From IMG/VR virus record IMGVR_UViG_2923318301_000003: a stretch of 53,582 nucleotides of DNA. One strand, written 5' to 3'. Of this stretch, positions 1 through 52,214 are shown in pieces. Each line of letters begins with the position of its first letter. Within the stretch, counting starts at the first letter, position 1. This DNA is from a virus (Duplodnaviria; Heunggongvirae; Uroviricota; Caudoviricetes). The notes beneath the pieces are model-generated. The model was not told where the DNA came from, did no database searches, and saw only the letters and a program-made list of their open reading frames with translations. A program made the position numbers and the translations under genes.

Positions 1-1209
1 CTACTTTGTAGCGTTCACCAGCAAAGAAATACATGAATTATGATTAGCGTTTATATAGTCCGCATACCACTGCATCATCTCCCTACGTCCTTCCAAATAC
101 AACGCATGGTTATACGTCCCACGAATCGCATTTTTATCAACGTGAGCCAGCTGGGTTTCAATCCACGCTGTATTGAAACCTTCCTCATGCAAAATCGTAC
201 TCATCGTGTGACGGAAACCATGCCCCGTTACCCTCCCCGTATATCCAATCCGCTTAAAAACCTGATTAATACTCGCTTCACTCATCGTCTTGCGGGGATC
301 ATTACGTCCCGGGAACACCAGTGGATATTGCCCTGACATCACTTTGAGTTGCTGTACGATTTCCAGCGCTTGGGTAGAGAGGGGGACAAGGTGAGGCCGT
401 TTCATCTTCATACGCTCGGCAGGTATCTCCCACACCGCTTTTTCAAGATCAAACTCACTCCAGAAAGCACCTCGGAGTTCGCCAGTGCGAACTCCCGTGA
501 GGATCAGCAGACGTGCCGCAAGAACAACTAACGGGCTTCCTGTGTAGCCTGCGAGAGCTTTAAAAAAGTCTGGTAACTCCTCAACAGTAAGGAAGGGATA
601 ATGCTTCGATTCATGCCCTGACATCGCGCTGGTAAGATCCGCTGCAGGATTGTATTCCGCACGACCGGTTACGATGGCGTAACGAAAGACTTCGCTGCAA
701 CGCTGGCGAACCTTCTTGGCCTTCTCTGTCGCGCCACGGCTTTCAATTCGACGCAGCACATTAAGCAGAACCAGCGGTTTGATTTCATTCACCGGTTGTT
801 GGCCAATATAGGGAAAAATATCTTTATTAAAGGCTTCGATAATGTCCGAGGCATAACCTTCTGACCATCGGCTCACCTTCGTTCCATGCCATTCAAGTGC
901 CACAGCCTGAAACGTATTATTTAGCTGCACATCTCGAACCAGCTTTTCTTCTTTCTTGGCAAGCGATGGATCGATACCTTCGGCAAGCTTTTTCTTGGCG
1001 TCGTCACGCAGTGCCCTCGCTTGTGCAAGGGACACTGCCGGATAGACACCAAAGGCCATACGCTTCTCTTTTCCATTGAAGCGATATTTCATCCGCCAGT
1101 ATCTGGAACCAGAGGGAACAACCTCAAGATACAAACCAGCACCATCTGCCAGCTTATAGGCTTTCTCTCTGGGTTTAGCTGCGTCTACCTGTCGCGCATT
1201 AAGTTTCAT
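1..1209 (-). CDS. P4-type tyrosine integrase of a second thrW-associated island that continues left of the window
   Basis: 415-aa ORF (likely start at MKLNARQ). C-terminal HGFRHT...LAH...Y motifs typical of tyrosine recombinases, with a P4/CP4-like N-terminus. Start faces the tRNA-Thr 3' repeat at 1371..1418; stop codon is at 1..3. Confidence 0.85.
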   Translation of the reverse strand: MKLNARQVDAAKPREKAYKLADGAGLYLEVVPSGSRYWRMKYRFNGKEKRMAFGVYPAVSLAQARALRDDAKKKLAEGIDPSLAKKEEKLVRDVQLNNTFQAVALEWHGTKVSRWSEGYASDIIEAFNKDIFPYIGQQPVNEIKPLVLLNVLRRIESRGATEKAKKVRQRCSEVFRYAIVTGRAEYNPAADLTSAMSGHESKHYPFLTVEELPDFFKALAGYTGSPLVVLAARLLILTGVRTGELRGAFWSEFDLEKAVWEIPAERMKMKRPHLVPLSTQALEIVQQLKVMSGQYPLVFPGRNDPRKTMSEASINQVFKRIGYTGRVTGHGFRHTMSTILHEEGFNTAWIETQLAHVDKNAIRGTYNHALYLEGRREMMQWYADYINANHNSCISLLVNATK

Positions 1210-1370
1210 TGGGGGCATCTCCCTAGACCGAACACAAAATGCCCCCACTTATGCCCCCAACTGCGACTTGATTTCGGTTGAGTCTAGTTGATAACAGGAG
1301 ATAAGATACGGGCCAGAAACCGCAGTATACGAGCTTTTAGTTGATTTCGGTAGACTTGGGAAGAGTTTGA

Positions 1371-1418
1371 AATGGTGCCGATAATAGGAGTCGAACCTAC
1401 GACCTTCGCATTACGAAT
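1371..1418. repeat. 48-bp direct repeat identical to the 3' end of tRNA-Thr (distal att core copy)
   Basis: aatggtgccgataataggagtcgaacctacgaccttcgcattacgaat is identical to 52137..52184; the two copies diverge immediately afterwards. Confidence 0.85.
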
Positions 1419-2165: not shown

Positions 2166-3011
2166 ATGACTGCACCAGTAATTAGTTTTATCAATATGAA
2201 AGGTGGGGTTGGTAAAACAACTTTATGCGTTGGGATTGCTGAGTTTTTAGCCAACCATATGGGGCGCAAGGTTCTAGTTATCGATATTGATCCTCAATTT
2301 AATGCCACTCAGTCCTTAATGGGGCATTATGATCGAGTAGAAGAATATATGACTGCCCTTCGCCCTAATAATCAAACCATTCGAAAGATTTTTGAGCTTC
2401 CAAATTCATTAATGGAAGATGAAAAGAAAGTGACACCAGAACAGGTCATTACTAAAGTTTCAGACAATCTTGATATTATCTTAGGTGATATAAACATTAT
2501 CTTTGATACTAACCAAGAGGGTATTAGAATAAAAATGTTGCGTAAATTCATCACCGAAAATGACTTAAAAGAAAGTTACGACTATATCTTTATCGATAGC
2601 CCCCCAACAATCTCATTATTTACAGATACCGCACTCCTTGCTTCTGATTATTATCTTACTCCGGTTAAAATTGATCACTACTCGGTGCTTGGAGCAAGCA
2701 GTTTAAATAGCGTTATAAGAAATATGCGCACACATCATGAGAAAGAAATCAAGCAAGTCGGTTACATTTATACAAACACTGATGCTGAAATGACCAATAA
2801 AACAAGGGAAATTAAAGAACAATTCGAAAACCATACTCAATTTACAAATTTTTATTTCTTTGAAAATCAATTAACCTACGTGCGTGATTTAATGGTAGGT
2901 TATCAAGGAAATATTCCTTCTTGTTATTCAAAGTCACGCCAAGATATAGAAAAGATCTGTAACGAATTTATTAACAGAGTGGCTCACTTGGAAGGTAACA
3001 CAAATGAATAA
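2166..3011 (+). CDS. ParA/MinD-family deviant Walker-A ATPase, first gene of a three-gene operon
   Basis: N-terminal MKGGVGKTT (KGGxGKT deviant Walker A); 281 aa; AT-rich; 8-nt overlap with the next gene. Confidence 0.8.
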   Translation: MTAPVISFINMKGGVGKTTLCVGIAEFLANHMGRKVLVIDIDPQFNATQSLMGHYDRVEEYMTALRPNNQTIRKIFELPNSLMEDEKKVTPEQVITKVSDNLDIILGDINIIFDTNQEGIRIKMLRKFITENDLKESYDYIFIDSPPTISLFTDTALLASDYYLTPVKIDHYSVLGASSLNSVIRNMRTHHEKEIKQVGYIYTNTDAEMTNKTREIKEQFENHTQFTNFYFFENQLTYVRDLMVGYQGNIPSCYSKSRQDIEKICNEFINRVAHLEGNTNE

Positions 3012-3402
3012 ACAATTAATTAAAGCGCTCAATAAAGCTAATAATATGCCCATGACCAAAGAAAACTTCTTAGGCTTGGTAATTATGTTGATTCTTTCAA
3101 AAGAGGTTTTTAGATCAAATTTTGATGTTAGTAAATTTATTAACAAAACCTTCAAAATATCTTTTTTGAATTATGCTGTACGGTCAAGAACTTTGATGTG
3201 CGCTAAAATTTGCAGACATATTAATGAATTAAGTGAGAATGACATAAAGATGGCTTATACGCATTTCTTAAACAACATTAACACATTAGACATTATTTTT
3301 AATGATGCAAATAAAACAAGCCAAAAATCCACATCTAAAAGCAAGCATGCTATAAGGAATTTAAATATTTGGATTAATGCAAATAAAAAGGAAGAAGAAT
3401 AA
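3004..3402 (+). CDS. Hypothetical protein, operon partner of the ParA-like ATPase
   Basis: 132-aa ORF overlapping the upstream stop; its stop overlaps the next start (ATGA at 3402). No recognisable motif. Confidence 0.6.
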   Translation: MNKQLIKALNKANNMPMTKENFLGLVIMLILSKEVFRSNFDVSKFINKTFKISFLNYAVRSRTLMCAKICRHINELSENDIKMAYTHFLNNINTLDIIFNDANKTSQKSTSKSKHAIRNLNIWINANKKEEE

Positions 3403-4067
3403 TGCTCACGCAGGATCCCTTCAACATTGGAAGAGATGTAAATTATTTTAGAGCGGAGGTGCAAAAGCACCTCAGAACCACTGATGAAATAAACAAATCA
3501 GTATCAATATTTAGGCAAATAAGTCTTTGTAATACAATTTTAAGTCACAATCCTAATCTAAATCACTCTTCTTATATAAAAGGTTTTATATATGATACCT
3601 TAAACTCCTTAATTGCCATTATAAAAAAAAGAGAACGGTATCTCCAACTGAACTTCCGCTCAATGGTGGAGCATGTGGCCAGAATAAGCCTCAATAAGAA
3701 CTACAATGGTGGGGATTTTGACCAAACTGTACGTCGTAGAGACTTTGACTTCTTAAAAGCCCAACAAGTCGATGAAGGCTGGTCTTATTTACATAATGTC
3801 TATATCAACGCCTGTTATTATGTTCACTCCTCCCCCCAAGCGAACCTAAATGTTACATCAACATTTATATCACTTATGGAGGGAGATTGTAATTCAACAC
3901 AGCATAAAATGGTGAAAAAACTTCATGAGGTAGTATCGGCGCTGATGAGAATCATTATAAAGTATTATCATCAGCATATCTCAAACATTTTCTTTAGAAA
4001 CAAAAAGGATTTAGAGAAAATAATGGGAAAAAGCCTTTATTCATATTATACCAGCTTAGACAATTAA
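3402..4067 (+). CDS. Hypothetical protein, third gene of the ParA-like operon
   Basis: 221-aa ORF translationally coupled to the upstream gene; contains R-x4/5-H spacings (RAEVQKH, RSMVEH), which are not diagnostic. Confidence 0.6.
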   Translation: MLTQDPFNIGRDVNYFRAEVQKHLRTTDEINKSVSIFRQISLCNTILSHNPNLNHSSYIKGFIYDTLNSLIAIIKKRERYLQLNFRSMVEHVARISLNKNYNGGDFDQTVRRRDFDFLKAQQVDEGWSYLHNVYINACYYVHSSPQANLNVTSTFISLMEGDCNSTQHKMVKKLHEVVSALMRIIIKYYHQHISNIFFRNKKDLEKIMGKSLYSYYTSLDN

Positions 4068-4862: not shown

Positions 4863-6434
4863 TTACTGAGAGCTCAGATCAACTTTCCAGGGCAACAGAT
4901 CGCGTACCCGGTTTGCCGGCCAGTCCTGGATATGTTCAATGACGTAACGCAGCCACTTTTCTGGCTCCACATTGTTCAGACGGCATGTGCCGATCAGCGA
5001 GTACAACACCGCCGCATGTTCACCACCGCTGTCGGAACCCGCGAACATCCAGTTTTTCCGGCCTACGGCCACTCCCCGTAAGGCGTTCTCTGCGATGTTG
5101 TTGTCGATTTCCACCCAGCCATTACTGCAGTACACGTTCAGTGCATCCCACTGTTTCAGCAGGTATGCGAACGCTTTTGCCGTATCTGAGTGACGCGACA
5201 GTGTTTTCATCTGTTGCTGTATCCAGTCATACAGTGACTGCATCAGTGGCGCGGCTCTGGCTTTTCTTGCCGCCAGACGCTGTTCTGCTGAACAGCCCCG
5301 GACCTCTGCCTCGATGGCATACAGTTCACCGATACGCTGCAGGGCTTCCGTGGTGATGTAGGTGGGCGCTCTTGCATGCACATCGTGGATTTTTCTCCGG
5401 GCATGAGCCATACACGCGGCTTCCGTTATTCTGCCGGATTCGTATAACGCCCGGTAACCACCGTAAGCATCGGCCTGAAGCACACCGCTGTAACCGGCCA
5501 GGTAATTTTGTGGATGGATACCTTTCCGGTCCGGACTGTACGCGAACCAGACCGCCGGGGGCATCTGTGAACCGGCGTTACGGTCATCACGGACGTAGAC
5601 CCACAGCCGGGCTGTCCGGGTTTTACCGCTGCCCGGCTCCTGGACCGGGACGGGGATATCATCAGCATGGACTTTACCGGGCATCAGCACATACTGGCGC
5701 AGGACGTCATACAGCGGCTCCAGCAGTTCAGCAACAGCACCTGTCCAGCGCCCCAGTGTGGCACGGCTCAGCTCCACTCCCTGACGACGGTATATTTCTG
5801 ACTGGCGGTATAACGGCAGATGGTCTGCATATTTCCCGGTGACAACATGGGCCAGAAGCCCCGCTCCGGCATAACTGCGTGCAATGGGTTTTGAAGGTAC
5901 TGGTGCCTGCACGATATGGTCGCACCGGCAACAGGCCTGTTTCGGACGTTGTGTTTCGATAACCTTAAAGGCGCTGCTGATAAGCTCCAGTTGCTCTGAC
6001 ACATCACATCCCAGAGAACTGAGTTCACCACCACAGGCAGGACAGCATTCCTCTTCCGGCCGGATAACCCGGGTTTCACGGGGAAGTGAGGCCGGTAACG
6101 GTTTACGGGCTGAAGACTGGCGCAGGGCGGATGGCAGTACCGGGTCATATTGCTCACCCAGCGTTTCCGCCATTTCTTCCTGAAGTGCGCTGATTCGCTC
6201 CTGTGCTTCCTGTATCTGCCGTTCGGTTTTTGCACGAAGTTTTTCTGAGCTTTTACCGAACTGCATACGTTGCAGTTTCGCAACCAGCGCCTTCAGCCGG
6301 TTGATTTCGGAAGCATAAGCCGCCACCCGCTGTGAGAGCAGGCGGTTGTATTCAGCCATCTGGCGGATGGTGTCCTGTTGCGTCTGCAACAGTGCCCGCA
6401 GGCGGGCGTTCTCATGAGCAAGTGAGGTGTCCAT
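4863..6434 (-). CDS. IS66-family transposase TnpC
   Basis: 523-aa ORF with N-terminal coiled-coil/leucine-zipper, a Cys-rich zinc-finger-like segment (CPACGG...CCRCD) and a DDE-type core; typical IS66 TnpC layout. Confidence 0.85.
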
Positions 6435-6453
6435 ATCCTCACTTTACAACGGG

Positions 6454-6801
6454 TTATATGCGGATTCCAGCGCGTTCCGTTCGTTTCGGGTGCTTCCAGT
6501 TGATACCTTCAAGAAGCATGGATAACTGAGCCGGAGTAAGGTGCACCTTGCCGTCACGGGTGACTGGCCAGACGAAGCGGCCCCGCTCCAGGCGTTTGGT
6601 GAAGAGGCACAGTCCGTCACTGTCAGCCCACAACACTTTTATCTGGTCACCCCGGCGTCCGCGGAAGATGAACAGGTGTCCGGAGAACGGGTCATCCTTC
6701 AGGACGTTCTGAACTTTTGATGCCAGGCCGTTAAAGCCATTTCGCATATCGGTGATACCTGCAACCAGCCAGATACGCGAACCTGCAGGGAGAGATATCA
6801 T
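6454..6801 (-). CDS. IS66-family TnpB (Orf2) accessory protein
   Basis: 115-aa ORF between orfA and tnpC with the conserved IS66 Orf2 character (WLVAGITDMRNGFNGLA...). Confidence 0.8.
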   Translation of the reverse strand: MISLPAGSRIWLVAGITDMRNGFNGLASKVQNVLKDDPFSGHLFIFRGRRGDQIKVLWADSDGLCLFTKRLERGRFVWPVTRDGKVHLTPAQLSMLLEGINWKHPKRTERAGIRI

Positions 6802-7478
6802 CAGTGGCTGCTCCCTTTTATTTCGCGGATAAGTGTCTGTAATAACGCCGGCGTCAGTTTACCTTTAAGCCTGAGAGTTCCGGCCGGCAGAACCAGCTCA
6901 CAACACAGACTGTCGGACGGTGTATTTATCTGCTCTGGTTCCTGTGCGGGGGCCGGGATTTTATTATCCGGCTCCGGCGTTAACGTCACGGGAAGCAGTG
7001 CCGGCATATTTTTTCCGGAAGGCAGCAGGCCACCTTTCCGGTATTGATGGCGCCAGTTGAAGAGCAGGTTATCGTTGATTCCGTTTTCCCGGGCGATCTG
7101 CGCCACACAGGCTCCGGGCTGCAGTGACTGCTCCACTAAGGCGATTTTAAACTCATAAGGGAAGTTGGGCCGCCGGGGACGTTTTTTTACCACGGGGGCT
7201 TCGGATATAACGGTGCTTTCAGGACGTACGACTGGTACCGTGGAAAATTGTCCGTAAAGGCAGGCATCAAGTTCCTGCTCCGACATGCCTGCGGGCAAAG
7301 GCCACGAAAGGCCAGCTCTCCGAAAGCGCACGAACATACTACAAACTGTTGATTTTGGTACACCCAGGCGACGCCCGGCCACAACCCGGGGTAAATGTTC
7401 TTCAAAGTGAAGACGTAAAGCTTCAGTGATCCAGGTCCGGTGTTTCATACGATAGTGTCCATTAAAAATGATGGACAT
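6801..7478 (-). CDS. IS66-family OrfA (Orf1)
   Basis: 225-aa ORF whose stop overlaps the tnpB start. HTH-like N-terminus. True start may be the internal Met (MKHRTW). Confidence 0.7.
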   Translation of the reverse strand: MSIIFNGHYRMKHRTWITEALRLHFEEHLPRVVAGRRLGVPKSTVCSMFVRFRRAGLSWPLPAGMSEQELDACLYGQFSTVPVVRPESTVISEAPVVKKRPRRPNFPYEFKIALVEQSLQPGACVAQIARENGINDNLLFNWRHQYRKGGLLPSGKNMPALLPVTLTPEPDNKIPAPAQEPEQINTPSDSLCCELVLPAGTLRLKGKLTPALLQTLIREIKGSSH

Positions 7479-36011: not shown

Positions 36012-36449
36012 TCATCGAAGGCATTGCGTCCTGATGTACTCCTGCAGGTAGTTAACCTGCGCGGTTATCCTGTCGATTCCACTTCGGAGACGGTAATAAT
36101 TGAGTTCAGCATCTGCTGTAAGTCTTGGGCTTTCTCCATCGCCCATGCTGCTGGCTCCGGTCTTTGACTTTGCACATGAGGCGGCGACTTGCAGCCGCTT
36201 ACGCCCAGCAGAAACATCATCACGGAGACTTTCGATAGTCGCGTTAGCATCAGCAAGCTCCTTTGTATATCTGGCGTCGAGTTCTGCTACGTCACGTTGA
36301 CGCTTCTGCATGTCAGCGATGATGGATGTGGCTTTGTCGCGCTGGGCTTTGTAGGCGATGGCGTTATCACGGTAATGATTAACAGCCCATAACAGGCAGA
36401 CGATGATGCAGATAACCAGAGCGGAGATAATCGCGGTGACTCTGCTCAT
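36012..36449 (-). CDS. Rz: Spanin inner-membrane subunit Rz
   Basis: [30 protein letters not shown] matches the lambda Rz N-terminus; downstream of the endolysin gene. Confidence 0.9.
36065..36256 (-). CDS. Rz1: Spanin outer-membrane lipoprotein Rz1, embedded in Rz in the +1 frame
   Basis: Nested ORF with lipobox LLGVSGC and a Pro-rich tail; exact start Met uncertain. Confidence 0.75.
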
Positions 36450-36922
36450 GCCTCAATCTCTCTGACCGTTCCGCCTGCTTCTTTGAATTTTGAAATCAGA
36501 CTGTCAGCCTTATGCTCGAACTGACCATAACCAGCGCCCGGCAATGAAGCCCAGATATTGCTGCAACGGTCGATTGCCTGACGAATATCACCGCGGTCAA
36601 TCATCGGTAAAGCGCCACGCTCTTTAATCTGTTGCAATGCCACAGCGTCCTGGCTTTTCGGAGAGAAGTCTTTCAGGCCAAGCTGCTTACGATAGGCATC
36701 CCACCAACGGGAAAGAAGCTGGTAACGTCCGGCTGCTGTTGATTTGAGTTTTGGGTTTAGCGTGACAAGTTTGCGAGGGTGATCGGAGTAATCAGTAAAC
36801 AGTTCACCACCGACAATAACATCATAACCGTGGTTACGTGTCGGTTGTCGCCCGTTATCCGTTCCTTCTGACCATGCAACCATATCCAGGAAAGCTTTAC
36901 GCTGGGAATTTAGTACCTGCAT
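36446..36922 (-). CDS. R: Endolysin R (lytic transglycosylase)
   Basis: 158-aa ORF with lambda R-like sequence ([11 protein letters not shown]...GYDVIVGG). Confidence 0.95.
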
Positions 36923-36925
36923 AAA

Positions 36926-37357
36926 TTACTCCTTCGAGCTACCAAACTTGTTACCGATTACTCTCATTGCAGCCCCACGAATAGCATCGACACCGATCAG
37001 CCCCACCCCACCACCAATGGCAACAGAAAGCGATTTAGGCCATCCGACATACTCAAGCGCGGATGCAAAGGTCAACGTCAGAGCGCCACATAGCAAAATC
37101 TCGAGCGTTTTTCGCTTCCAGCCACCACCACCGCCAAAATAGGCGATGCGCAAACCAGCCATAACAATCGACATAATCACTGCGCCCAGCGGCGTATCTC
37201 CACGCCACCAGCTCTGAAACAACTCCAGCCAGTCCGGCCAGGTATTTGGGTTATGAGGCATTTCGTCATCTCTCACCTCGCGATATTTGCGGGTGCTGTG
37301 TTGGAAATAAAAAGGCCACGCAACGTGGCCACCAGAATTATTTCCCCACCAGTTCAC
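36926..37357 (-). CDS. Putative holin (not lambda S type)
   Basis: Immediately upstream of the endolysin gene; three hydrophobic helices. Start is probably internal (MPHNPNTW), because the full ORF overlaps the methyltransferase 3' end. Confidence 0.6.
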   Translation of the reverse strand: MNWWGNNSGGHVAWPFYFQHSTRKYREVRDDEMPHNPNTWPDWLELFQSWWRGDTPLGAVIMSIVMAGLRIAYFGGGGGWKRKTLEILLCGALTLTFASALEYVGWPKSLSVAIGGGVGLIGVDAIRGAAMRVIGNKFGSSKE

Positions 37358-38390
37358 TTACCTCTTTCACCGTCTGATTAAACCGCTCTGACTCAAGTTC
37401 AACACCTAACGCCCGACGCCCCAGCGCCATTGCCGCTTTTATTGTGGAACCGGATCCCATAAAGAAATCAGCAACCAGATCGCCTTGTCGACTACTGGCA
37501 CTGATTATTTGCCGGAGCATATCCGCAGGCTTCTCACACGGATGTTTACCCGGGTAGAACTGAACGGGTTTATGCGTCCAGACGTCGGTATAAGGCACGG
37601 AAACTGATACGGAGAAATAGCGCCGGAGAGTTTTAAACTCATCCAGCAATTCAGAATATTTGCGATTCAGTGAATCATAAGATGCCACCAGCTGGTGGTG
37701 TGGTTGTTCCAGTTGTTGTTCCTGAAATTTCTCTGCCGCTATACGGGAAAACAGTGCCTGCAACTTCCGGTAGTCAGCCTCATTCGGCAACTGCCACTGA
37801 CTGGCACCAAACCAGTGGGAAACCATATTTTTCTTACCTGTGGCTTCAGCAATTTGTTTTGCCGTTATACCCAGTTCGGCACGAGCATCCCTGAAATACG
37901 ATATCAGCGGTGCCATTATGTGCTGTTTGAGTTCCCTTTCTTTTGCCGCATAGCCGTCACTTTTGCCGCGATATGGCCCCTGGTAATGTTCAGCAAACAG
38001 AACGCGCTCTGTGGCAGGAAAATATGCGCGCAGACTTTCTTTATTACACCCATTCCAACGTCCGGACGGCTTCGCCCAGATGATATGGTTAAGCACGTTG
38101 AAACGTTCACGCATCATGATCTCAATATCAGATGCCAGGCGATGCCCACAGAACAGGTAAAGGCTTCCGGCTGGTTTCAGTACCCGCCAGAACTGGGCCA
38201 GACAGTGGTCCAGCCACTTCAGGTAATCTTCGTCCCCTTTCCACTGATTGTCCCAGCCGTTGGGCTTCACTTTGAAGTACGGCGGATCGGTAACAATCAG
38301 ATCAATGGAGTTATCAGGCAGGGACTGAATAAAATGCAGGCAATCAGCGTTGATTAAATCAACACTGTTTATTTTTACAGTATTTTTCAT
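37338..38390 (-). CDS. DNA methyltransferase (DPPY-motif N6-adenine/N4-cytosine class), orphan
   Basis: VTDPPYF near the N-terminus and the AdoMet motif DFFMGSGST near the C-terminus; no adjacent restriction gene. Confidence 0.85.
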   Translation of the reverse strand: MKNTVKINSVDLINADCLHFIQSLPDNSIDLIVTDPPYFKVKPNGWDNQWKGDEDYLKWLDHCLAQFWRVLKPAGSLYLFCGHRLASDIEIMMRERFNVLNHIIWAKPSGRWNGCNKESLRAYFPATERVLFAEHYQGPYRGKSDGYAAKERELKQHIMAPLISYFRDARAELGITAKQIAEATGKKNMVSHWFGASQWQLPNEADYRKLQALFSRIAAEKFQEQQLEQPHHQLVASYDSLNRKYSELLDEFKTLRRYFSVSVSVPYTDVWTHKPVQFYPGKHPCEKPADMLRQIISASSRQGDLVADFFMGSGSTIKAAMALGRRALGVELESERFNQTVKEVSELVGK

Positions 38391-38540
38391 GGATCAGTAA
38401 GCGTAACTCTGGTAGGCTCACTCTGCTTTTGCGCTAAAGCAGTGGGCCGTGGTTCGCTTGTGACAAGTAAGCATGAGCGAATGGCTGGCAGGTGCTACCA
38501 ACACCCACCAGCCGCCCATTTTCACAGCAGGAAACCGCCA

Positions 38541-38744
38541 TTACTGGCAGCGTCTGAATTTATTCCCGTACCCGCCGTTATCCTTCGCCAGACCCGCCAG
38601 AACTAACTGAGTCAGTATTAACTGGCACCTGGCTTCGCTTACTCCGGTAGTTCTCGTCATCATGCGTGGCGTTACCCACTTGTCAGCAGGTAAGAAATGA
38701 AGGACTGCGGCGGCGGTTTCTGTCATATCTTGCTGTTTTAGCAT
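38541..38744 (-). CDS. Small hypothetical protein
   Basis: 67-aa ORF with an AAGGGA RBS before the ATG at 38744; no recognisable motif. Confidence 0.4.
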   Translation of the reverse strand: MLKQQDMTETAAAVLHFLPADKWVTPRMMTRTTGVSEARCQLILTQLVLAGLAKDNGGYGNKFRRCQ

Positions 38745-39008
38745 GTCTTTTCCCTTCTGGTTAACATGACATACCAATAACTCTTGTCTAAAAAGCCAGC
38801 AAGATAAAAAGCCAGTATTCACGACCACCAGCGTGTTTACTGTACTGCACAAGGTTTACAGGTACAAAAAAACCGCTCAGCGGCGGGTTTAAGTTGTGTG
38901 GCGAAGTAACCACTCTTAACACGATATAATACTTTTTGCGTACGCGTTAGGATTTTTATAAACTATGCGTCCCCATTCTCGCTAACTTTAGTCGGTCCTG
39001 GAATACAC

Positions 39009-39935
39009 ATGAAAGTTAGAAGCATAGGATTTACAATAAATAACAATAACAAAAATATTAATACCGTTGACGTAATGAATGCTTTTATCAACGCATCAAA
39101 CAGAGAACACAGTCGCACAGACTATACTCGTAAAATTCTCATTTCGGATGTGAATGATTTCTATTATGGATTAGTTGTCACATTCAGAAACCAAAAAAAG
39201 AACTGTAAGTCGCAATTTGTTGATGGTAAATTCCAGCTTAAAATTGAAGATCTTCAAGGAAGTGACAAACTTGCTAATTTCAACTTTTTCTTAATTAAAA
39301 AATCTAATCTTTCTGGTCTCTATATGTATCACCACGGGTCATGCAGTCTGAACACTCTCTTTTCTCATTTAGAAACAATAAGTAATGAATTTATCAGAAA
39401 TCAAAATAAAGAAGAAATAAAAAAACTTGGTGATAAACCAAAACAAAAAGAAGTAACTGCAATAAATAAAAAATACAAAGAAAGACTGACTTTCAGCCTT
39501 ATGACAAATAAAAACAACATTCAGAGTGTTTTATGTCAATTCAAAGAGATTAAAAGCACAAGCTTTAAATTTAATTATATAGATTTTAAAGGTGGACCAA
39601 TGACTGCGCTTGAACAATTTGTTAACACTACCACAATAGATATGAATTTTAATTCTAGCGACAGAACAAAAGTGCAACAACTATCTCAGAATCTTTCAAA
39701 TATTTATAATTCTATGAGTGGAGTTGCTAAAGCACAGGTTATTGCAGTAAACCATGCAGGAATAGAAAAAACCATTGATTTTATGAACTGCCCTGTTTTT
39801 TTTGAAACATACGATTTCGATATAATTGCCGATAAAGTCAATGGATTGACAAACGATAATTATACAACAAACCCTGTTTTTGATATGATAAAAGAAGAAA
39901 TGCTGAACGGGACGAATAAAAATGCCTTTATATGA
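39009..39935 (+). CDS. Hypothetical soluble protein, first gene of the AT-rich two-gene moron operon
   Basis: 308-aa ORF, strongly AT-rich, opposite strand to the flanking phage genes; 14-nt overlap with the next gene; no recognisable catalytic motif. Confidence 0.75.
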   Translation: MKVRSIGFTINNNNKNINTVDVMNAFINASNREHSRTDYTRKILISDVNDFYYGLVVTFRNQKKNCKSQFVDGKFQLKIEDLQGSDKLANFNFFLIKKSNLSGLYMYHHGSCSLNTLFSHLETISNEFIRNQNKEEIKKLGDKPKQKEVTAINKKYKERLTFSLMTNKNNIQSVLCQFKEIKSTSFKFNYIDFKGGPMTALEQFVNTTTIDMNFNSSDRTKVQQLSQNLSNIYNSMSGVAKAQVIAVNHAGIEKTIDFMNCPVFFETYDFDIIADKVNGLTNDNYTTNPVFDMIKEEMLNGTNKNAFI

Positions 39936-40470
39936 ATGGCTAATAAATAAAAGATTGAGGTATCAGTACCTTACACTGCTTGCATCCTCGATCCTGGCAT
40001 TGCTTGCACTTTACCTATTGTACAGAAACACACCTAAAGTAAGTGTTAACTTTTTTGATTTTTATCATAAAAACTTACGAGGCTATCTCTTCTCCGGTTT
40101 TATTTCCGTGGGCTCATTTTTATTGAGCCTGCATACCTTTGTCATAATAAATTTACGCGATAAGGTTTTTGCAACTCAGGAATATAAGGAAATTTATAGC
40201 ATTGCCACTGGTATACCTATTGACAAAATCAATGATAGTGTACTTTATAAACCTTTAGACAATTTATCCTCATTTATTAATACATCAATATTATGTTCTA
40301 TCACAACAGCAATTGCACAATTCACTATTGGACTTTCAACTAATTTATATGCATGCTTATTTTGCGTATGGCTTGCAATACTAACGGTATTTCTTTTATT
40401 ACATTGCCTCATCATAATCAGACAAAATATTAAAATTTTATTAAAGCAACAGAGAAAAAAAGGGGGGTAA
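39922..40470 (+). CDS. Small integral membrane protein (four predicted TM helices), second gene of the moron operon
   Basis: 182-aa ORF with four hydrophobic stretches of ~19-25 aa (LTLLASSILALLALYLLY; LFSGFISVGSFLLSLHTFVIINL; SILCSITTAIAQFTIGL; LYACLFCVWLAILTVFLLLHCLIII) and a basic C-terminus. Confidence 0.75.
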   Translation: MPLYEWLINKRLRYQYLTLLASSILALLALYLLYRNTPKVSVNFFDFYHKNLRGYLFSGFISVGSFLLSLHTFVIINLRDKVFATQEYKEIYSIATGIPIDKINDSVLYKPLDNLSSFINTSILCSITTAIAQFTIGLSTNLYACLFCVWLAILTVFLLLHCLIIIRQNIKILLKQQRKKGG

Positions 40471-40482: not shown

Positions 40483-40839
40483 TTACAACATTGAAAGCAC
40501 ACCATCCAGAAAACCAAGAGCTGTTTGCAACTCTTTTCTTATTGTCCCATCAGAACACTTCTGCTTCTTTGCAATAGTTCTTAGTGAGATGCCGATAACA
40601 AAATGAGCAATAACCAACTCATACTCTTCGGGCTTATATTTCCGCAATCGCGCAACACAGCTGTCAATCATGATTCCTTCATCATCATCGCATTGTTGGC
40701 GTGTTTTCTTTCCATGAGGTAGTAAACCTTTAAACCCTGCAGCAACAGGCTGCCAGTCCACACCACTGTTATCTGCTGCAGCCCATGCACCCCAGCGGTC
40801 CAATACTTCATACATATCACGCATCAACTTTCTCCACAA
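40483..40839 (-). CDS. Q-like late antiterminator (small QuuD/phage-82 type, not lambda Q)
   Basis: 118-aa ORF (MRDMYEVLDRWGAWAA...GFKG...C..DDD...C) resembling small prophage Q antiterminators from memory; positioned upstream of the lysis region. Confidence 0.7.
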   Translation of the reverse strand: MWRKLMRDMYEVLDRWGAWAAADNSGVDWQPVAAGFKGLLPHGKKTRQQCDDDEGIMIDSCVARLRKYKPEEYELVIAHFVIGISLRTIAKKQKCSDGTIRKELQTALGFLDGVLSML

Positions 40840-50734: not shown

Positions 50735-51084
50735 TGGAGCCATACAGCCTCACACTCGATGAGGCCTGTCATTTTCTCAAGATATCCAGACCGACTGCCA
50801 TTAACTGGATACGCACAGGGCGTCTTCAGGCAACACGCAAAGATCCCACTAAGAATAAATCTCCTTACCTCACAACACGACAAGCCTGCATTGCGGCTCT
50901 TCAGTCTCCGCTGCATACTGTCCAGGTGAGCGCGGGTGATGGCATAACAGAGGAAAGAAAATGTCACTCTTCCGCAGAGGTGAAATATGGTACGCCAGTT
51001 TCACATTGCCGAACGGTAAAAGATTTAAACAGTCTCTTGGAACAAAGGACAAAAGGCAGGCGACAGAACTCCATGACAAGCTAA
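50734..51084 (+). CDS. Excisionase-like HTH protein (3' boundary uncertain; overlaps the integrase start)
   Basis: The N-terminus [30 protein letters not shown] is a typical excisionase/AlpA-type HTH; the open frame runs ~120 nt into the integrase gene. Confidence 0.55.
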
Positions 51085-52124
51085 AGGCTGAAGCATGGCG
51101 GGTCAGCAAACTTGGTGAAATACCTGATATAACGTTCGAGGAAGCGTGTGTCAGGTGGCTTGAAGAGAAAGCACATAAAAAATCACTGGACGATGACAAA
51201 AGCCGGATCGGATTCTGGCTTCAACATTTCGCAGGAATGCAACTAAGAGACATTACTGAATCAAAAATTTATTCAGCAATGCAGAAAATGACGAACCGGC
51301 GTCATGAGGAAAACTGGAAACTCAGGGCAGAAGCATGCAGAAAAAAAGGGAAACCTGTTCCAGAATACACGCCAAAACCAGCGTCCGTTGCAACGAAGGC
51401 TACGCATCTTTCATTTATAAAGGCCCTACTAAGAGCCGCAGAGCGTGAATGGAAAATGCTGGATAAGGCACCAATTATTAAAGTGCCCCAACCAAAGAAT
51501 AAACGGATCCGCTGGCTGGAGCCCCATGAAGCACAAAGGCTGATTGATGAATGTCCGGAGCCATTAAAGTCTGTTGTTGAATTTGCACTGGCAACAGGCC
51601 TAAGACGCTCGAACATCATCAACCTTGAATGGCAACAAATAGATATGCAGCGCCGGGTGGCATGGATAAACCCGGAAGAGAGTAAATCAAACCGCGCAAT
51701 TGGCGTTGCGCTGAATGATACTGCATGTCGCGTATTGAAAAAACAAATCGGGAATCATCACCGTTGGGTATTTGTGTACAAGGAAAGCTGTACCAAACCA
51801 GACGGAACGAAAGCGCCAACAGTCAGGAAGATGCGGTATGACGCAAACACAGCCTGGAAAGCAGCGCTGAGACGGGCTGGTATTGATGATTTCAGATTTC
51901 ACGACTTGAGACACACCTGGGCAAGTTGGCTGGTTCAAGCCGGAGTCCCGTTGTCAGTGTTACAGGAAATGGGAGGCTGGGAGTCTATCGAAATGGTTCG
52001 TCGATATGCTCACCTTGCACCTAATCACCTTACCGAACACGCACGGCAAATAGACTCGATCCTGAACCCATCGGTCCCAAATTTGTCCCAGTCAAAAAAT
52101 AAGGAAGGTACTAATGATGTGTAA
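50961..52124 (+). CDS. Prophage tyrosine integrase
   Basis: 387-aa ORF; C-terminal [39 protein letters not shown] catalytic region; ends 13 nt from the att core and tRNA. Confidence 0.9.
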
Positions 52125-52136
52125 CTTATTGATTTT

Positions 52137-52184
52137 AATGGTGCCGATAATAGGAGTCGAACCTACGACCTTCGCATTACGAAT
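52137..52184. repeat. att core within the intact tRNA-Thr (proximal copy of the 48-bp repeat)
   Basis: Identical to 1371..1418. Confidence 0.85.
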
Positions 52185-52214
52185 GCGCTGCTCTACCAAC
52201 TGAGCTATATCGGC
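52139..52214 (-). tRNA. thrW: tRNA-Thr (anticodon CGU)
   Basis: 76-nt cloverleaf on the - strand: GCCGATATAGCTCAGTTGGTAGAGCAGCGCATTCGTAATGCGAAGGTCGTAGGTTCGACTCCTATTATCGGCACCA; adjacent to proA as in E. coli. Confidence 0.9.

Follow-up and report, generated by a model that had tools for sequence, protein, structure and literature searches.

The window, as we call the whole stretch of 53,582 nucleotides that was analysed (IMG/VR record IMGVR_UViG_2923318301_000003), contains a lambdoid prophage in which the head, tail, lysis and integration modules are all complete. A 48-bp direct repeat, derived from the 3′ part of a tRNA-Thr gene, marks its two ends. A DNA methyltransferase gene and a GmrSD gene both lie inside these repeats (Table 1). 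The methyltransferase gene was described in an earlier note as an orphan upstream of the lysis cassette, and both parts of that description stand. Genes for a holin, an endolysin and the Rz spanin are found downstream of it on the same strand. No restriction enzyme adjoins the methyltransferase, the flanking ORFs being without a nuclease match, and an antisense ORF (37695-38357) has no match in Pfam, PADLOC or NCBIfam. The regions flanking the gene in SfV and mEp460, and in the Klebsiella, Salmonella and Pantoea loci, likewise have no restriction enzyme called. A 1.5-kb AT-rich insert on the opposite strand, between the Q gene and the putative late promoter, lies outside the methyltransferase module and is missing from the SfV and mEp460 loci, in which the module is 96-97% identical. 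The two ORFs of the insert were considered as a restriction partner and rejected, based on the lack of a nuclease match, the GC content of 30% and their absence in SfV and mEp460.

Table 1 Features of the prophage referred to in the text, with positions in the window.
Feature	Position	Strand	Evidence or remark
Distal att repeat copy, far prophage end	1371-1418	.	48-bp direct repeat
Single-chain GmrSD type IV restriction enzyme, 629 aa	7705-9594	+	Pfam, PADLOC, alignment blocks
Rz spanin	36012-36449	-	PF03245
Endolysin	36446-36922	-	RefSeq glycoside hydrolase family 24
Holin S	36926-37261	-	PF05106
Intrinsic terminator between methyltransferase and holin	37304-37330	-	Same feature annotated in SfV
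M.EcoGII-family beta-class N6-adenine DNA methyltransferase	37338-38390	-	PF01555, DPPY, FMGSG, M.EcoGII identity, dN/dS
Conserved 5′ leader of methyltransferase	38391-38540	-	Structured core about 38414-38526
67-aa minimal winged-helix ORF (phrog_331)	38541-38744	-	Co-conserved with methyltransferase
Intrinsic terminator, tR′-like	38866-38887	-	SfV equivalent annotated as rho-independent terminator
Putative Q-dependent late promoter and initial transcribed region	38888-38960	-	TATTAT at 38926-38931, then GTGTTAAGAGTGGTTACTT
AT-rich two-gene insert (308 aa, 182 aa)	39009-40470	+	~30% GC
Antiterminator Q	40483-40824	-	PF06530
att repeat within tRNA-Thr (52139-52214)	52137-52184	.	Adjoins integrase (51006-52124)

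The methyltransferase ORF is an intact, full-length frame of 350 amino acids with an ATG start. Residues 29-341 match the Pfam family N6_N4_Mtase (PF01555) with 143.9 bits, where the cut-off is 26.7 (E = 9.6e-42). The motif order is that of the beta class, with the catalytic DPPY at residues 35-38 in the N-terminal part, the target-recognition domain next, and the SAM-binding FMGSG (FxGxG) at residues 310-314 near the C-terminus. All family-invariant residues are retained. These features bear out the earlier reading of the gene as a complete DPPY-class methyltransferase. The NCBIfam matches to the YhdJ-like, PRK13699 and CcrM models were all sub-threshold, and the enzyme is therefore not an equivalog of these families; membership of the YhdJ-like (NF008572, 109.8 against a cut-off of 292) and CcrM (NF050803, 67.2 against 830) equivalogs was ruled out by scores far under the cut-offs. 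A sequence search of the PDB revealed no solved close relative, the best match being to M.BceJIV over the core only. We calculated an AlphaFold model from a 37-sequence alignment (76-97% identity) and used this model, which is of low confidence (mean pLDDT 66.5), for the core fold and helix content only. A fold search with the model returned the beta-class N6-adenine methyltransferases M.BceJIV, CcrM, MboIIA and RsrI, again over the core only, and helices are predicted between the core halves at residues 146-173, 177-184, 190-194, 204-223 and 231-255. The closest solved structures, M.BceJIV (PDB 8URK/9C3U), CcrM, M.RsrI and M1.MboII, have the beta-class catalytic core in common with the window enzyme, but they are site-specific, are only 15-23% identical to it and are without the predicted helical insertion of ~130 residues that would constitute its target-recognition domain.

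The window protein is far closer to M.EcoGII and to its tested ancestors. Since the M.EcoGII, Anc291 and SUPREM (Anc284) sequences came from an OCR'd supplement table with visible errors, checked against loci L001 and L017, the identities are approximate: about 81% to M.EcoGII (284 of 349 positions in BLASTP, colinear), about 89% to Anc291 and about 70% to SUPREM. The alignment with M.EcoGII contains two 1-residue gaps, which are explicable as OCR errors. [quoted passage not shown] M.EcoGII, from E. coli O104:H4 C227-11 (EGT69837.1), has 349 residues against 350 here, and is likewise beta-class in motif order, prophage-borne and an orphan. Both proteins have a glutamine at position 179, whereas SUPREM has a glutamate. 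Anc291 and SUPREM are synthetic, reconstructed ancestors of the M.EcoGII cluster that were themselves tested (PMC11551740); together with M.EcoGII they bracket the window protein, as judged from pairwise identities. M.EcoGII was characterised by Murray et al. (2018) as a non-specific N6-adenine methyltransferase that modifies nearly every adenine (PMC5778455). All three enzymes methylate DNA and accept adenine in any context; this independence of context was demonstrated on RNA for each of M.EcoGII, Anc291 and SUPREM, and in the case of M.EcoGII on DNA as well (PMC5778455, PMC11551740). Anc291 is highly active on DNA (PMC11551740). Among site-specific enzymes, the one most closely related to the cluster is M.PflMI, which shares just 27% identity with M.EcoGII (PMC5778455, PMC11551740). 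Judged by its sequence, the window methyltransferase belongs to the already characterised M.EcoGII family and is not new. Functional analogues are Mom of phage Mu and those promiscuous adenine methyltransferases of the alpha class that the M.EcoGII paper cites; as here, they are phage-encoded and modify adenine in a broad range of contexts, but in chemistry or fold they are unrelated to the window enzyme. Mom is not known to be a SAM-dependent methyltransferase. The alpha-class enzymes have a motif order that is the reverse of that in the window enzyme (PMC5778455).

The methyltransferase DNA has matches in 1265 of 5426 complete genomes and is 100% identical in at least 8 E. coli chromosomes among the matches listed; the family is matched in at least a quarter to a third of complete E. 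coli genomes. The genes of the phages SfV (orf48), cdtI ('putative DNA methylase'), mEp460 (gp53) and Ayreon are 96-97% identical to it at the nucleotide level, and we found no biochemical characterisation of these four homologues in the literature. The methyltransferase is under strong purifying selection, with a dN/dS of 0.07 against SfV and mEp460, and of 0.03-0.12 wherever dS could be estimated. In SfV, mEp460, cdtI and Ayreon, as in the window, a module consisting of a terminator, a small ORF, the leader and the methyltransferase is found between Q and the lysis genes, whereas the Q genes and holins of these phages are of families other than those of the window. The gene also lies between the Q antiterminator and the holin in Klebsiella, Salmonella and Pantoea prophages, as it does in SfV and mEp460. 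Across loci from 69 species, the closest ORF upstream on the same strand, counting those with 100 residues or more, belongs to a recognised Q family in 48 (PF06530 in 26, PF06323 in 15 and PF03589 in 7), and the first downstream ORF belongs to a holin family in 35 of 62 loci. A Tad2-like anti-defence gene is next downstream of the methyltransferase in three related loci.

Homology to the SfV and mEp460 modules starts at the tR′-like terminator. The adjoining 38888-38960 segment aligns with the sequence directly after PF06530-type Q genes in Klebsiella L005, Salmonella L026 and L049, which suggests a putative Q-type late promoter region. A consensus promoter scan gave 9 sites against 8.8 expected from shuffled sequence, and is uninformative because such sites are no commoner than in the shuffles. 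The position of the gene downstream of this putative late promoter region and of the tR′-like terminator fits with expression only late in lytic growth. Ahead of the methyltransferase ATG there is no Shine-Dalgarno sequence. The gene is preceded by a structured leader RNA of ~135 nt, with covariation in 37 species, that folds into a three-way junction. The junction comprises P1 (UGGGC/GCCCA) and two hairpins, one of 12 bp and the other with the stem UUCGCU/AGCGAA; an alternative pairing downstream (AGGCC/GGCCU) is available to the 3′ strand of P1. The leader motif is followed by a DPPY ORF in 113 of 114 IMG/VR contigs, with the ATG 52-54 nt past the motif end, and it is kept from Escherichia to Providencia and Yersinia, tied exclusively to this methyltransferase family. 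Rfam gave no match at the leader in the window and six related loci, the hits to fstAT (E = 0.37) and P26 (E = 0.81) being noise. A helix drawn by eye that would sequester the start codon (AUCAG/CUGAU) was dropped, as variant sequences do not compensate. The 67-aa ORF has sub-threshold matches to TrmB (25/40), DprA_WH (23/40) and MarR_2 (15/40). The winged-helix protein of the module is 63-73 residues long, and the ORF and leader precede the methyltransferase across Enterobacterales; in E. albertii, the same ORF and leader as here precede the gene for a protein that shares about 95% identity with M.EcoGII. We found no prior description of this pairing of a winged-helix ORF with a leader RNA. 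Tentatively, the leader could be a new cis-regulatory RNA, either a switch that responds to a protein or ligand or a damper on translation, that holds back an enzyme whose leaky expression would be dangerous; we consider this possible, at somewhat less than an even chance.

The presence of a GmrSD-like nuclease in the same prophage, also reported in the earlier note, was confirmed by Pfam and PADLOC matches. The protein combines an N-terminal DUF262 domain with a C-terminal DUF1524 domain containing the D-H-N motif (GmrSD_N, 7.8e-34; GmrSD_C, 5.1e-20), and matches PADLOC mREase_IV end to end with 1439 bits. It is nearly residue-for-residue the same as the published alignment blocks of the UTI89, Eco94 and CT596 GmrSD enzymes, and its block ...NLDIDHLMPQSWYSCWPLENGHMV... 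is identical to those of Eco94 and CT596. By this alignment it is an orthologue of the three enzymes, which act on glc-5hmC and 5hmC DNA and have poor activity on Dam+ Dcm+ lambda DNA. The earlier concern was that the methylation might itself be a target of the nuclease. Our analysis does not refute this concern but lends it no support, because the orthologues target (glucosyl-)5hmC, whereas the predicted modification here is on adenine and not on cytosine. Enzymes that depend on m6A, such as Mrr and DpnI-like winged-helix nucleases, would be a more relevant risk than GmrSD.

We consider it likely that the gene encodes a functional M.EcoGII-family methyltransferase, which would act on adenine in any context, be expressed from a late-only transcript and leave phage DNA densely m6A-modified. 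The enzyme would methylate adenine in essentially any context, like M.EcoGII and the bracketing ancestors. It would be transcribed only within the Q-antiterminated late transcript, in the order late promoter region, terminator, winged-helix ORF, leader, methyltransferase, second terminator and lysis genes. It would therefore stay off in the lysogen, to which blanket methylation would do harm, and come on late in the lytic cycle. The lack of a Shine-Dalgarno sequence, together with the leader structure, would probably add a post-transcriptional restraint. Replicating and packaged phage DNA would thereby become densely m6A-modified. Clones that expressed M.EcoGII constitutively grew slowly and were unstable, and M.EcoGI and M.EcoGII gave no methylation signal in the native strain (PMC5778455). 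The EC958 (ST131) homologue was judged inactive in that strain by RT-PCR, with no motif assigned, and the O111 homologues gave no motif in lysogens. Protection of progeny DNA, as the earlier note had proposed, appears to be the most plausible role, and the late-operon slot would fit with blanket m6A. The methylation to be expected is probably dense, motif-less m6A that appears only after induction, and the hunt for a recognition motif is probably moot, because the tested M.EcoGII-family enzymes methylate adenine in any context.

A promiscuous enzyme might alternatively have a main job other than anti-restriction, such as host shut-off or reprogramming, the marking of DNA for replication or packaging, or the methylation of RNA or single-stranded DNA. 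We regard this as unlikely. In vitro substrates of M.EcoGII do include single-stranded DNA, RNA and DNA:RNA hybrids (PMC5778455), but its rate on RNA is about 100-fold under that on DNA (Table S3, PMC11551740). An enzyme expressed from the late operon, just ahead of packaging and lysis, would hardly have time to reprogramme the host. A role in packaging is on record for some orphan methyltransferases of phages, for example P1 Dmt, and we found no in vivo test of anti-restriction in the literature; however, DNA methylated by M.EcoGII resisted all 12 adenine-sensitive restriction enzymes tested, and the Tad2-like gene downstream in related loci fits with a counter-defence slot. That the gene encodes an orphan methyltransferase of the usual sequence-specific kind, recognising a discrete motif, as the earlier note implies, is quite improbable. 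Most PF01555 enzymes are site-specific and NCBI names many members of the cluster accordingly, but the YhdJ-like and CcrM equivalogs score far under their cut-offs and M.PflMI is distant from the cluster. The differences in the target-recognition domain are set against a colinear alignment with M.EcoGII interrupted by only two 1-residue gaps, against a still closer match to Anc291, an enzyme that lacks specificity on RNA and has high activity on DNA, and against the lack of a motif for the O111 and ST131 homologues. A decaying or inactive prophage remnant is highly improbable, since the silence of the family under laboratory growth and an early stop in 6 of ~75 related loci (raw ORF extraction) are countered by the full-length frame, the invariant residues, a dN/dS of at most 0.12 and the complete modules that surround the gene.

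The value of a functional M.EcoGII-family assignment lies in a corrected expectation: many automated records name these proteins 'site-specific DNA-methyltransferase', yet the family member that has been characterised lacks specificity. Surveys of lysogen methylomes would be expected to show nothing, and searching for a motif is probably the wrong test. It is a common assumption that lambdoid phages exit the cell with their DNA under blanket m6A; we found no direct demonstration in the literature, nor a paper showing hypermethylated virion DNA for any phage with such a gene. The intact prophage in the window would be a suitable system in which to test this idea. A possible explanation of how so hazardous a methyltransferase stays off lies in the leader RNA and the winged-helix ORF that are conserved with it.

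The gene under study is a 350-codon ORF with an ATG start, and residues 29–341 of its product match Pfam PF01555 (N6_N4_Mtase; E 9.6e-42). PHROG 'DNA methyltransferase' families match the ORF at about 1e-102, and a PADLOC model for type II methyltransferases does so at 1e-152. The motifs DPPY (residues 35–38) and FMGSG (residues 310–314) stand in the beta-class order. The AlphaFold model, a weak one with a mean pLDDT of 66.5, contains a Rossmann core with a helical insertion, and a fold search with this weak model matched the beta-class N6-adenine methyltransferases M.BceJIV, CcrM, MboIIA and RsrI. Purifying selection on the gene is strong, with a dN/dS of 0.07 against SfV and mEp460 and of 0.03–0.12 across comparisons with unsaturated dS. 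On ORF extraction, six related loci (L057, L073, L074, L077, L079 and L083) showed a stop in the first 3–53 methyltransferase codons; these may be pseudogenes or may use different start sites. The earlier note described a complete DPPY-class methyltransferase upstream of the lysis cassette with no adjacent restriction partner, and this description holds: holin, endolysin and Rz lie directly downstream on the same strand, and the neighbouring ORFs do not resemble restriction endonucleases. The outline of its interpretation was also right, but it overlooked that the protein belongs to a characterised, probably motif-less enzyme family.

This family is typified by M.EcoGII from E. coli O104:H4, which methylates adenine non-specifically, is silent in the strain it comes from and does harm when constitutively expressed (PMC5778455). 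M.EcoGII is beta-class and prophage-borne like the window protein, and the two are of nearly equal length (349 aa and 350 aa). Supplementary Table S1 of PMC11551740, read by OCR, supplied the M.EcoGII sequence. The window protein is identical to it at 284 of 349 positions (81%), and the sole gaps, two of one residue each, look like OCR errors. It is ~89% identical to Anc291 and ~70% to Anc284/SUPREM, reconstructed ancestors of the M.EcoGII cluster, although these OCR-derived identities are approximate and, if anything, slightly too low, because the table as read contains errors ('NHHIW' for NHIIW; an additional R in GRRA). The errors were recognised against the copies in a Stx2c phage (L001) and in E. 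albertii (L017), the latter ~95% identical to M.EcoGII. M.EcoGII, Anc291 and SUPREM all methylate DNA; methylation regardless of context was shown for all three on RNA and, for M.EcoGII, on DNA as well. M.PflMI, the cluster's closest site-specific relative, shares only 27% identity with M.EcoGII. Judged from this sequence kinship, the window methyltransferase is probably a motif-less member of the family. By eye, the Stx2c-phage methyltransferase (L001 4001-5059) looks mosaic, its N-terminal ~150 residues near-identical to the window protein and its central part like M.EcoGII, which suggests recombination inside the family.

The gene itself is common, ordinary and already catalogued. The window is a lambdoid E. 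coli prophage at tRNA-Thr(CGU), beside proA, delimited by a 48-bp direct repeat of the 3' part of the tRNA (1371-1418 and 52137-52184). Eight listed chromosomes, NZ_CP025950.3 among them, have an identical copy of the gene annotated, the gene DNA matches 1265 of 5426 complete E. coli genomes, and phages SfV (orf48), cdtI, mEp460, Ayreon and others carry nucleotide homologues at 96–97%. At E <= 1e-20 the protein family falls into 2935 clusters (90% identity), distributed over Escherichia, Citrobacter, Salmonella, Klebsiella, Enterobacter, Cronobacter, Pantoea and Erwinia. When a single genome of each species was scanned, 202 relatives came up, the farthest, at 62–66% identity, in Photorhabdus, Xenorhabdus, Providencia, Morganella and Yersinia. 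A second tyrosine integrase (1-1248, minus strand) starts just outside the distal att repeat, suggesting a tandem array of elements integrated at tRNA-Thr. At the same distal end of the prophage, close to the att repeat, a ParA-like ATPase (AAA_31, phrog_164) is followed by two uncharacterised ORFs (phrog_6264, phrog_7540), together spanning 2166-4067 on the plus strand.

Features of the late region and the GmrSD-like gene in the window
Feature	Coordinates	Strand	Evidence or remark
Q antiterminator	40483-40824	-	PF06530
Two-gene insert, 1.5 kb, 30% GC (flanks about 50%)	39009-40470	+	between Q and late promoter
Promoter-like region and initial transcribed sequence	38888-38960	-	alignment
Intrinsic terminator, before small ORF	38866-38887	-	
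Small ORF, 67 aa	38541-38744	-	phrog_331
Spacer/leader, 150 nt	38391-38540	-	small ORF to methyltransferase
Methyltransferase	37338-38390	-	PF01555
Intrinsic terminator, methyltransferase to holin	37304-37330	-	
Holin, lambda-type	36926-37261	-	PF05106
Endolysin	36446-36922	-	RefSeq glycoside hydrolase family 24
Rz	36012-36449	-	PF03245
GmrSD-like nuclease, 629 aa	7705-9594	+	both GmrSD domains

The position of the methyltransferase between Q and the lysis genes is conserved across species. The nearest upstream same-strand ORF of at least 100 aa belongs to a recognised Q family in 48 of 69 species' loci (PF06530 in 26, PF06323 in 15, PF03589 in 7) and is DUF1133 in 13 of the 69. A holin family is the first downstream ORF in 35 of 62 loci; in three loci of alignment A6, which comprises related methyltransferase loci, this position is held by a Tad2-like anti-defence (anti-Thoeris) gene. 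Homology to the SfV/mEp460 module starts exactly at the terminator before the small ORF, and further upstream the sequence is Q-specific and differs from phage to phage. In the window this upstream sequence (TATTAT... GTGTTAAGAGTGGTTACTT...) aligns with what comes directly after Q genes of the PF06530 type in Klebsiella, in Salmonella and at one further locus. On this alignment, the late promoter and the Q-utilisation region appear intact, merely parted from Q by the AT-rich insert. Both ORFs of the insert are absent from phages that carry the same methyltransferase gene at 96–97% identity; they overlap (308 aa, phrog_2802, uncharacterised; 182 aa) and are encoded opposite to the late operon. 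They gave no match in Pfam, PADLOC or NCBIfam searches, and an antisense ORF at 37695-38357 none in Pfam. Defence or superinfection exclusion would be only a guess at the insert's role. In other species the surroundings of the module are a cargo hot spot: HicAB lies between Q and the module in Salmonella (L007, 2614-3501), and tRNAs with three STnc100 sRNA copies lie downstream of it in E. albertii (L017, 5100-6183).

Small ORF and methyltransferase are separated by 148–150 nt in E. coli, Klebsiella, Salmonella and Pantoea, and the conservation of this spacer exceeds that of synonymous sites (88% identity where dS >1.5). We aligned 37 distinct leaders from 37 species (Enterobacterales). In the RNAalifold structure 96.7% of cells are paired, compared to 34–48% with the partners slid, and 9 pairs are changed on both sides, compared to 3.4 ± 1.1 in shuffles. 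With a three-way-junction model the count of such pairs is 16 (7.4 ± 1.3 in shuffles), and both a long hairpin and the UUCGCU/AGCGAA helix show clear compensatory swaps. The long hairpin is common to both models; since they use a GGCC segment differently, alternative pairing of the leader is possible. Every one-sided change in the RNAalifold model is G.U-compatible on the sense strand, and two sense-strand G.U wobbles in the window's long hairpin would be A.C mismatches on the opposite strand, which together point to a sense-strand RNA. The leader is predicted to form a three-way junction and a hairpin, with its core at ~38414-38526 (minus strand). Rfam gave no match at the leader, whether in the window or at six related loci. 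A degenerate leader pattern matches at least 120 IMG/VR contigs, and of the 114 that extend far enough, 113 have a DPPY ORF starting 52–54 nt past the motif end; the leader is thus tied exclusively to the methyltransferase family. No Shine-Dalgarno sequence precedes the methyltransferase start codon, where GCUUACUGAUCYAUG is conserved.

Judged from sub-threshold Pfam matches to TrmB, DprA_WH and MarR_2 in 15–25 of 40 members, the phrog_331 product is a putative minimal winged-helix protein, which may be a regulator or accessory factor. Its ORF and the methyltransferase are conserved together over a range that runs from Escherichia to Xenorhabdus and Providencia. Our guess is that leader and winged-helix protein restrain or time methyltransferase translation. 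Of what is described here, only this module may be new, the methyltransferase itself being known.

The earlier note also raised the compatibility of the methylation with a GmrSD-like nuclease in the same prophage. The nuclease gene does lie inside the element, as the flanking 48-bp repeats show, and a PADLOC type IV model covers the protein end to end (1439 bits). Published alignment blocks of the UTI89, Eco94 and CT596 GmrSD proteins recur near residue-for-residue, including the D-H-N nuclease motif. The gene sits in a cargo region just past the tail-fibre genes, as likewise reported for Eco94GmrSD; an IS66 copy of three ORFs (4863-7478, minus strand) lies right beside it. Eco94GmrSD cuts glucosyl-5hmC and 5hmC DNA, and cuts Dam+ Dcm+ lambda DNA poorly. 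By these specificities the known GmrSD substrate is not a product of an adenine methyltransferase, and the concern finds no support. Mrr and DpnI-type winged-helix nucleases, which are m6A-dependent, are a more plausible cost of a dense-m6A strategy.

We propose that the methyltransferase would be transcribed only once Q carries RNA polymerase past the terminators. Q-dependent transcription would account for the silence of the family in lysogens; family members in C227-11, EC958 and O111 strains have been reported without signal or transcript. The host would tolerate a harmful enzyme because its transcription would be confined to Q read-through. M.EcoGII expressed from a plasmid in vivo converted 86% of the dA in that plasmid to m6dA, with poor cell growth. 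Our literature search found no direct m6A measurement on virion DNA of phages with such genes; a 2025 review casts M.EcoGII as progeny-DNA protection. DNA treated with M.EcoGII resisted all 12 of the 12 adenine-sensitive restriction enzymes tested, and the purpose of the enzyme in these phages would be blanket protection of progeny DNA.
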